Positions 8,402 to 9,824 of a stretch of 61,270 nt of DNA are shown here, piece after piece (position 1 is the stretch's first letter; each line of letters starts with the position of its first letter). The notes beneath the pieces are model-generated. The model was not told where the DNA came from. It saw only the letters and a list, made by a program, of their open reading frames with translations, and did not search any database. This DNA comes from Myxococcota bacterium. Its GTDB lineage: Bacteria > Myxococcota_A > SURF-8 > G963663525. The position numbers were made by a program, and so were the translations under genes. The stretch is from positions 1-61,270 of the forward strand of contig CAXXVK010000022.1 in NCBI GenBank assembly GCA_963676915.2, written 5' to 3'.

Positions 8402-8626
8402 GTAGGTCGGACTAATTTTTAGCCCGACAATTTTCGAAAACCAACCCAGATGTCGAGAAAGAAATTTACCCGACATCAGTCTATAGCATATTCAGTAGGT
8501 TGGATGATTTTCACCCGACAATTTTACAAAAAGATCCTTTGTGTCGGGTGAAATCACCCGACTTACGGTTTTTCCTACAAAAAATCTCCCCACTTGGCCT
8601 TGTCGGGCAAGAAATTTGCCCGACCT
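8402..8626. repeat. Cluster of 5 GTAG-type REP palindromes (family A); the last is interrupted by the IS110
   Basis: GTAGGTCGGACTAATTTTTAGCCCGAC (8402), 8451, GTAGGTTGGATGATTTTCACCCGAC (8495), TGTCGGGTGAAATCACCCGACTTAC (8542), TTGTCGGGCAAGAAATTTGCCCGACCT (8600). Confidence 0.85.
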
Positions 8627-8677
8627 TGTATGATCTTTATTGTGTCAGTTTTCAGGTGTTTGTTGTGGTAAAATGGT

Positions 8678-8845
8678 GATGCTCCCTGGGCGGCCGCCCA
8701 GGGAGCATCGGGCGGCGAGATCGTCCCGACCTTGGGTTTTTCAACCCGTGTGTAGCTGGATCCGCCGCCCGTTTTGTCCGGGAAGCCCGAACAGTCGCTA
8801 GGGCCATTGTACACCGATGAGCCCGCATGAGCAAGGAAGGGTGAA
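8678..8845 (+). ncRNA. Predicted bridge RNA
   Basis: 5' hairpin 8678-8709. Target-binding loop closed by CGGGCGGCG/CGCCGCCCG, with LTG TCCCGACCT (8724-32) and RTG TGTGTAG (8749-55). Donor-binding loop with LDG ACAGTCGCT (8791-99) and RDG GCAAG (8831-35). Ends approximate. Confidence 0.85.
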
Positions 8846-8849
8846 CGAG

Positions 8850-9784
8850 ATGGAAACCGTCGGAATCGACATCAGCAAGCTTTCGTTCGATCTGGCCGTA
8901 GGTTCGTCCCGAACCGTCGAGACTTTTGAGTACACCCCAGCAGGAATGAAAAAAGCGTTTCGTAAAATCAGCAACGCCGCGCCAGATCTGGTCGCCATGG
9001 AATCCACCGGTGGCTACGAAAACCGCCTGGCCCAGTTCCTGCAAAAACGGAATTTCAATGTGGCCGTCGTCAATCCACGACGTATTCGCGCCTTCGCTCA
9101 GTCTCTTGGACTTTTAGCGAAAACCGATCGCATCGACGCCAACCTCATCGCTCGCTACGCCGCACTGGTCCAGCCCCGTCACATGCGAAAAATCACTCCC
9201 GAGAGTCTGAAACTCAAAGCCCTTGCGGCTCGCCGAAGGCAACTGATCGATATGCGAACAGCAGAGAAAAACCGTGTGGAACACGCCGACGACAAGCTTG
9301 TCGCACGCAGTCTGAAAACGATCATCAAAGCTCTGGACAAGAACGTCGAAAGCATCGAGGAGGCGATACGGAGCATCGTTCAACGCAACGAATCGCTCTC
9401 CGAAAAGGTTCGATGCCTCATGACCGTTCCCGGTATCGGTTCGCTCACGGCTCACTGCCTGATCGTTGATTTGCCCGAACTGGGTGAATACAACCGGCGC
9501 CAAATCGCCGCTCTCGTCGGCGTCGCTCCGTTCAATCGAGATAGCGGCGCGTTCAAAGGCAAACGCATGACCGGTGGGGTGGAAGAAGGCAAGTGCGCAC
9601 CCAACTGTACATGCCCACTTTGTCCGCCATCCAGCACAACCCTGTGATTCGAGCCTTCAATCAAAGGCACGTCACTATGGGTAAACCCAAAATGACCACC
9701 GTCATCGCATCTATGCGGAAACTCCTCGTTATCATGAATACTATGCTTAAAAATAGGGAGGAGTGGAAACCAAAATTTGCTTGA
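8850..9784 (+). pseudogene. IS110 recombinase (DEDD RuvC-like + Tnp domain), frameshifted
   Basis: VGIDISK, AMESTG, KTDRIDA, VPGIG, RDSG motifs. A GGTGG duplication at 9573-9582 shifts the frame; the C-terminus ([15 protein letters not shown]) is in ORF 9593-9784. Confidence 0.85.
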
Positions 9785-9824
9785 CTTCAATCACAGTCGC
9801 TACATCGTCTACATCGTCAATTCG

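Follow-up and report, generated by a model that had tools for sequence, protein, structure and literature searches.

The locus considered here raises the question of whether an insertion sequence lying against a cluster of REP units finds these repeats by means of an RNA guide of its own. It occurs in the window, by which we mean the whole stretch of DNA that was analysed (61,270 nt of contig CAXXVK010000022.1, from a Myxococcota bacterium whose genome is called G000 below), and coordinates without a prefix refer to it. A first-pass annotation, made without database searches, had described an IS110 bridge-RNA system with guides programmed against the host's own REP family. Our analysis leads to the same identification: with a probability of about 0.9, positions 8627-9801 are a copy of an IS110-group (IS621-like) insertion sequence, for which we infer an RNA-guided mechanism. 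All the defining traits of the IS110 group that a sequence can reveal are present, the dependence on RNA being a prediction from these features.

Boundaries, copies and insertion sites

The coordinates of the features are collected in Table 1. The element is present where it was first described, but the limits then given, 8618 and 9806, both take in flanking bases: the element proper begins with TGTATGAT at 8627 and terminates with ACAGTCG-CT at 9793-9801, followed by ACATCG. The CT core claimed for both ends is indeed read at 8625-8626, in the flank, and at 9800-9801, in the right end. The left end comprises 223 nt (8627-8849) and the right end 17 nt, and there are no terminal inverted repeats, in keeping with the IS110-group layout of a long non-coding left end and a short right end (PMC11208160). 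At the right junction, a 9-nt word (CTACATCGT, the core CT and the first seven flank bases) is doubled in tandem at 9800-9817, possibly by slippage or as the trace of an earlier event.

Table 1. Features of the element and of its insertion site, in window coordinates.
Feature	Coordinates	Strand	Remarks
REP cluster, five units	8402-8428, 8452-8474, 8495-8519, 8543-8562, 8602-8624 (span 8402-8624)	+	Pattern scan
Left target (LT) GCCCGAC, 8618-8624, with CT core, 8625-8626	8618-8626	+	REP 3' arm; same arm beside five of six copies
IS110-group insertion sequence	8627-9801	+	1175 bp including right-hand CT core; one of six full copies
Predicted -10 box TATGAT	8629-8634	+	Promoter formed only on right-to-left end joining
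5' stem-loop of putative bridge RNA	8678-8709	+	Folds: 14-bp perfect stem, GGCC loop
Putative target-binding loop	8710-8770	+	Stem 8710-8722/8759-8770; LTG 8724-8732; hairpin 8733-8748; RTG GTAG 8752-8755; handshake 8756-8757
Putative donor-binding loop	8786-8841	+	Base stem 8786-8788/8839-8841; LDG 8791-8799; hairpin 8801-8824; RDG 8831-8835; handshake 8836-8837
Recombinase gene, DEDD RuvC-like and Tnp domains	8850-9784	+	Broken by GG insertion at 9576-9577; frames 8850-9647 and 9593-9784
Predicted -35 box TTGACT	9781-9786	+	Overlaps stop codon 9782-9784
Left donor (LD) ACAGTCG with CT core	9793-9801	+	Identical to LDG
Right target (RT) dinucleotide AC	9802-9803	+	RTG-paired; RT begins with AC in 6/6 own copies and 30/32 parsed copies

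A search of G000 with 8627-9801 returned six full copies of 1173-1175 bp, together with pieces of 345 and 55 bp, and no contig of this genome ends inside the element. Only 7 of the 1176 alignment columns vary among the six copies, and the first 224 nt are identical in all of them. Each copy has CT on its left and AC on its right. The 3' arm of the palindromic REP, NCCCGAC, precedes five copies; the sixth, on contig C53, follows AACGGAC in non-repeat DNA and matches at four of the six LT positions 2-7. The suggested check of whether all copies lie in CCCGAC-CT-AC gives five that do and one, C53, that does not, with its partly matching non-REP site; CT-AC is common to all six.

Two shorter pieces were also observed. 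G000:C58:1-480 holds a 5'-truncated copy (element positions approximately 829-1175) which starts 126 nt from the contig start. Ahead of this fragment one reads a REP, CT and ACTTG(CT), bases that recur after its right end, so that it is flanked by a direct repeat of 7-9 nt; a rearrangement may explain this, or else an artefact of assembly at the contig end. The other, G000:C60:183797-183851 on the minus strand, is a 55-bp left-end relic with three mismatches, which follows a REP with the core AT instead of CT and has unrelated DNA beyond it.

The REP as target

The insertion target is the last unit of the REP cluster (8602-8624), so that the element stands at the cluster's end. The 10-mer CCCGACCTAC has 133 occurrences in the genome, whereas its backwards control has 13 and 11.5 would be expected from composition; 127 of the 133 sites lie in REP hairpins, with a GTCGGG-like partner at most 30 nt upstream. 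As had been claimed, removing the element restores a REP: the joined flanks give the 29-mer of the first-pass annotation, which has 32 exact occurrences elsewhere in the genome (63 with at most one mismatch), and which differs by one base from the copy at 18926-18954.

Another genome of this genus (G001, 96% complete) has 122 occurrences of CCCGACCTAC, against 25 for the control, and no match to the protein at E 1e-30. The REP is therefore present there without the element, which suggests that it predates the element in this lineage and that the element was probably gained recently.

The recombinase gene

In four of the six copies, among them the one at C37:14697-15869, the gene is intact; its frame codes for 321 aa, reduced to 310 aa if translation begins at the more likely start, METVGID. 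The intact protein (P0001) scores 218 bits against NF033542 (NCBIfam, IS110 family RNA-guided transposase; cut-off 140), and matches PF01548 at 1.8e-25 and PF02371 at 5.9e-18. In a phmmer search, the proteins of solved structure that it matches over nearly the full length are the ISCro4 transposase (E 1e-35) and the IS621 transposase (E 3e-30). D7, E51, D93, D96, and S232 (S232-G233) align with D11, E60, D102, D105, and S241 (S241-G242) of IS621, which are named as catalytic (PMC11208158); the numbering of the IS621 structure chain is offset by two. The DEDD domain and the Tnp domain with its conserved serine, as expected in the IS110 group, are thus both present. Calling this an orthologous programmable recombinase was too strong, since the protein is a distant homologue of IS621 within the same IS110 group, but the element does have a target and donor pair of its own. 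The family is very large: of 8000 proteins scored, 6528 reached E 1e-40 or better. Its nearest protein cluster to ours is 95% identical and the following clusters at most 62%.

The window copy differs from the four intact copies by two extra bases (GG, 9576-9577), a +2 frameshift located about 11 codons past the catalytic serine and altering the last 67 residues. With one extra A in the C72 copy, two of the six copies are frameshifted. The window copy's own recombinase therefore probably lacks the C-terminal 67 aa. As this copy agrees with the four intact ones throughout its RNA and ends, it can probably still be mobilised, but only in trans. The repaired recombinase proposed earlier for a plasmid assay is not needed, since intact natural copies exist. 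A second, distant IS110-like gene, unrelated to the six copies, was noticed at G000:C53:180063-181213, in two pieces scoring 65 and 69 bits against NF033542, under the cut-off.

The sequencing runs listed as containing this DNA include no RNA run. In the contigs of four sequencing runs covering 8300-10100, we found neither an empty-site joint nor a junction between the two ends of the element, a result that says nothing either way because contigs drop rare forms. One joint, from 9803 to 8593 with 32 letters between, was considered as a circle and rejected: it is instead the flank of another copy followed by a REP. In run X1, the pieces 8300-8648 (left flank to left end) and 9778-10100 (right end to right flank) each have a depth of approximately 2.5-3, and the element body forms one piece at depth 28 without the two extra bases at 9576, as would fit a multi-copy element whose majority form is intact. 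A run from a second study contains a variant that differs at 9 letters in about 500, and at 19 in 226 near the right end.

These observations bear on whether the family is a fossil here, with past spread and no copy now active. The two frameshifted copies and the relics on C60, C58, and C27 (the last described below) would fit such a history. Nevertheless, the gene is intact in four copies, seven differing columns in 1176 and identical bridge RNA regions point to recent spread, and the REP without a copy in G001 makes a recent gain probable. We consider extinction of the family in this genome unlikely.

The putative bridge RNA

The left end was proposed to hold a 5' hairpin, a target loop and a donor loop, and comparison among orthologues supports this arrangement, through covariation in 13 of them and through a covariance model that finds the RNA at 23 of 28 held-out loci. 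It is also the IS110-group arrangement, in which the left-end RNA combines a 5' stem-loop with two internal loops.

Folded as a single sequence, the left end reaches -97.7 kcal/mol (z-score -4.6) and shows the 5' hairpin, a 12-bp target-loop stem and, between the guides of the target loop, a small hairpin (8733-8748) separating TCCCGACCT (8724-8732) from GTAG (8752-8755). In the partition function, the mean probability of being unpaired is 0.69 for LTG, 0.58 for RTG, and 0.38 for LDG. The fold suggested as a check on the first reading therefore gave the 5' hairpin, the target loop and mostly unpaired LTG and RTG, but not the donor loop, which is absent from the single-sequence minimum free energy fold, where the donor region pairs with the 5' leader instead. 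This gap is filled by the comparative data.

The orthologues were taken from public genomes (best identity 51%, in Caldithrix, Desulfococcaceae, and Desulfobacterales metagenome genomes) and from the window's own order (G009 and G007, 60%; G003, 54%, 8 copies; G005, 53%, 8 copies). When 13 left ends are aligned, invariant blocks surround the variable guide positions, and a hairpin of different sequence occupies the same 5' place in the orthologues. We considered a structure of 30 pairs, made up of the target-loop stem and hairpin and the donor-loop base stem and hairpin. In the 13 orthologues, which are related to one another, 90.3% of these positions can pair, against 34-52% when the partners are slid by 1-3 columns, a control that favours the structure because it was drawn partly from the window sequence. 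Compensatory change is seen at 11 pairs, and none of 500 shuffles equalled the pairing, the number of compensatory pairs or the covariation score. The target-loop helices correspond to covariation helices 1 and 2; in helices 3 and 4, those of the donor loop, 93-97% of the cells are paired and five pairs show compensatory change. RNAalifold on the raw alignment paired LTG with the RDG region, which we judge to be a by-product since the two have the same CCT/AGG to read; this result was dropped in favour of the 30-pair structure.

The covariance model of the two loops (R1) scores 130 bits on the six own copies. Outside the loci used in building it, R1 matches over its full length at the 23 loci mentioned, immediately before the recombinase gene and on the gene strand, and reaches elements of Neisseria, Rothia, and Archangiaceae with 36-38% protein identity (E 2e-27 to 6e-3, these E-values being rough). 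The five sources without a match have only truncated genes or no upstream DNA.

Guides and the DNA they match

We compared each guide with the DNA that it would read. As claimed earlier, the LTG TCCCGACCT (8724-8732) matches the left flank and core GCCCGACCT (8618-8626) at 8 of 9 positions, and the LDG ACAGTCGCT (8791-8799) matches the right end ACAGTCG with CT (9793-9801) at all 9. The RDG GCAAG (8831-8835) likewise pairs with CT and TGT at 5 of 5 positions, with one G-T wobble. For the RTG, previously read as TGTGTAG (8749-8755), the complement does fit CT with ACA over 5 nt in the window copy, but only GTAG/CTAC is common to the six copies, the third RT base being A in three of them. An extended RTG was rejected: of the three bases that precede GTAG on its 5' side, none or one agrees with the flank in almost every multi-copy case. 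As these bases do not follow the flank, we take the RTG to be of 4 nt, the length described for IS621 (PMC11208160). LTG positions 2-9 match the flank in five of the six copies.

It might be argued that such matches arise by chance, or that a functionless REP fragment lies within the left end. A loose REP pattern does flag 8707-8730 inside the left end, and among 20,000 shuffled left ends 502 had a flank match of at least 8/9, so that this match by itself would be expected in 2.5% of cases. A 9/9 match to the right end was reached 11 times, however, and both matches together never; the guides also occupy fixed places in a conserved, covarying scaffold, and orthologues whose LTG is CCCATC lose the REP-like appearance. 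Chance or a stray REP fragment is thus largely refuted by the helix covariation, the shuffles and the covariation of guide and flank described next, and we regard it as extremely improbable.

To follow guide and flank together, we used an anchored parser, which was given 45 copies or loci and parsed 32, representing 12 elements; the 13 dropped were mostly of the Neisseria type, whose target loop has no GATCG anchor, or loci with an end not found. In the 12 elements, agreement between LTG positions 2-7 and the left flank averages 4.58 of 6 for cognate pairs and 3.48 of 6 for non-cognate ones. The observed sum was reached in 6 of 100,000 permutations (p 6e-5), a value which overstates the case because related elements are not independent samples.

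The multi-copy elements illustrate this concordance. In G000, with the LTG CCCGAC, five of six flanks are identical to the guide, and in G003, with the same guide, eight of eight. In G005 the LTG is CCCATC and all eight flanks are CCCATC, and the CCCATC guide of G009 is likewise found in a CCCATC repeat, on the same scaffold as in the window element. The 10-mer CCCATCCTAC is enriched over its control in G005 (17 vs 5), G007 (32 vs 6), and G009 (41 vs 5), but not in G000 (3 vs 5) or G003 (0 vs 6). Some results speak against the guide reading. The elements' own target 10-mer showed no enrichment over the control in G003 and G007, and the match is lower in other cases, at 4 of 6 for the G007 guide TCCGAC and only 2-4 of 6 for the single-copy loci L015, L017, L023, and L054. 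By eye, the Neisseria element L036 has ATCCGAC in both loop and flank. On the donor side, a right end ACAGTTG goes with an LDG ACAGTTG in four loci. RD, RDG and the handshake bases are nearly constant and carry no covariation signal.

The first LTG position is T in all 12 elements and mismatches the target in all six own copies. The REP base opposite it, over the 133 sites, is G in 92, A in 39, C in 1, and T in 1. One natural mismatch between guide and target is also tolerated in IS621 (PMC11208160). In the Desulfobacterales-type loci L016, L017, L018, L021, and L056, the LTG ends in CC with a flank core CT, and the LDG ends in CA with a right end CT; the core-reading bases of this subclade therefore differ from those of the window element.

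REP specificity could also come from the recombinase itself, reading the REP DNA or its hairpin, with the left-end RNA being just the 5' leader of the transposase mRNA. The position of the target within a palindrome, the first LTG base that never matches it, and a donor loop overlapping the ribosome-binding region are compatible with such a protein-based recognition, and the ISPpu10 preprint reports that the target stem-loop adds specificity. It would have to account, nevertheless, for an LTG that changes from CCCGAC to CCCATC along with the flank on an unchanged scaffold, for an LDG equal to the right end at 9/9, and for the C53 copy, whose non-REP site still shares CT, AC, and four of six LT bases with the guide. 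In addition, the homologues IS621 and ISCro4 have been solved as RNA-guided complexes. All of these points make recognition by the protein very unlikely, and we retain guidance by the left-end RNA as the preferred explanation.

Predicted junction promoter, inverted repeat and handshake bases

When the right end is joined to the left end at the core, TTGACT and TATGAT come to lie 17 nt apart, forming a predicted sigma-70 promoter, identified by sequence only and split between the two ends of the integrated element. The same layout of -35 box, 17 nt and -10 box was computed in 12 of 13 elements, and read by eye in the thirteenth (G009: TTGACG, 17 nt, TATTAT). Rebuilding of a promoter upon excision has been described for IS110 elements (PMC11208160).

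Just outside the donor, three bases on each side form a subterminal inverted repeat, ATC...GAT. Of the 12 elements that could be read (G009 excluded), 10 have a perfect repeat, with four different triplet pairs among them, and a short subterminal inverted repeat is a feature of the IS110 group (PMC11208160).

The bases 3' of RTG and RDG, called handshake bases, pair after strand exchange with position 7 of the other DNA and never with that of their own (PMC11208158). The base after GTAG is C, which pairs with donor position 7 (G) and not with target position 7 (C); the base after RDG is G, which pairs with target position 7 (C) and not with donor position 7 (G). Both fit the IS621 rule, a consistency rather than a test since these bases are near-invariant.

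Combining the sequence features with the published work on IS621, we propose the following mechanism. The element would leave as a circle, and the joining of its right end to its left end would create the sigma-70 promoter (TTGACT, 17 nt, TATGAT), which could then drive the transcription of a bridge RNA, about 200 nt long, out of the left end; its expected start is roughly 7 nt past 8634 and its expected end near 8845. The target loop of this RNA would pair with the REP arm CCCGAC-CT-AC, where LTG would take the bottom and RTG the top strand, while the donor loop would pair with the joined ends ACAGTCG-CT-TGTAT. A tetramer of the DEDD/Ser recombinase would finally swap strands at the CT core, giving insertion in the REP without target duplication.

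Comparison with known systems

IS621 of Escherichia coli (PDB 8WT6) shares with the window element the domain pair, the five catalytic residues, the CT core, a 9-nt LTG, a 4-nt RTG (GTAG for CT with AC) and a 9-nt LDG. Both also have a long left and a short right end, a split promoter, a 3-bp subterminal repeat, handshake bases following the same rule, a REP arm as natural target and one tolerated mismatch between guide and target. The RNA is likened here to the published IS621 layout. The proteins are only distantly homologous (phmmer E 3e-30), with 310 aa here compared to a chain of 328 residues, and IS621 targets the ATCAGGC REP family whereas the REP family here is CCCGAC. A blastn search of E. 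coli genomes with the element gave no match, and the 2161 records returned by a plasmid protein search have less than 60% identity, none being named IS621.

The ISCro4 transposase (PDB 9T56) is the best relative of solved structure (E 1e-35, residues 3-301), the likeness being one of protein. ISPpu9 and ISPpu10 of Pseudomonas putida are IS110 elements inserted in REP or conserved intergenic stem-loops, as here, with other hosts and targets. The IS1111 group has the same recombinase family but carries its bridge or seek RNA in the right end; in the window element, unlike in IS1111, the RNA region lies in the 223-nt left end, the right end has 17 nt, and the inverted repeat has 3 bp. The IS110-group layout is used as defined in PMC11208160.

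Significance of the element and its relatives

Bridge RNAs, REP targeting by IS110 elements and the concordance of guides and targets across natural orthologues are all in print (PMC11208160; PMC12288879; ISPpu10 preprint). The window element is an ordinary member of the IS110 group, which leaves knowledge of the mechanism unchanged and would not surprise a specialist. Its relatives may already figure among the published predicted bridge RNAs.

Its clade could form a natural series of compact bridge recombinases (approximately 1.17 kb, 310 aa) from one bacterial order and Desulfobacterales-type metagenome genomes, in which one conserved RNA scaffold serves, through retargeting, at least four repeat arms (CCCGAC, CCCATC, TCCGAC, and CCCACC), with the first LTG base fixed as a non-pairing U and one subclade reading the CT core with CC. 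We offer this description tentatively, as quite possible though not yet the favoured one. If active, these would be new orthogonal recombinases, and would show directly how guides drift after the host REP family, also when an element enters a genus in which the REP was present beforehand. With six mapped copies and retargeted orthologues, the element is a well-resolved natural example for a family under development in genome engineering, and it accounts for part of the repeat and IS landscape of its genome.

Other sequences resembling the bridge RNA

At G000:C27:18616-18741, on the minus strand (1617-1742 of locus L097), we observe a decayed bridge-RNA-like sequence, which scores 45 bits with R1 and has its target-loop hairpin deleted. 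No recombinase gene adjoins it, and it lies shortly before a 462-aa gene of the same orientation.

An Rfam scan of 8300-10100 returned four matches up to E 10, all weak and under their gathering scores, with no bridge RNA family among them, and Rfam 15 may hold none. The best of these matches is sX15 of Xanthomonadaceae (RF02234), which covers 8700-8846 on the minus strand, opposite the bridge RNA, at 30 bits (gathering threshold 55; E 0.013). sX15 is described as complementary to asX7 and as having 10 homologues in Stenotrophomonas maltophilia (PMC3300014). Given the match, this complementarity and these homologues, sX15/asX7 may be the bridge RNA region of an IS110 element.
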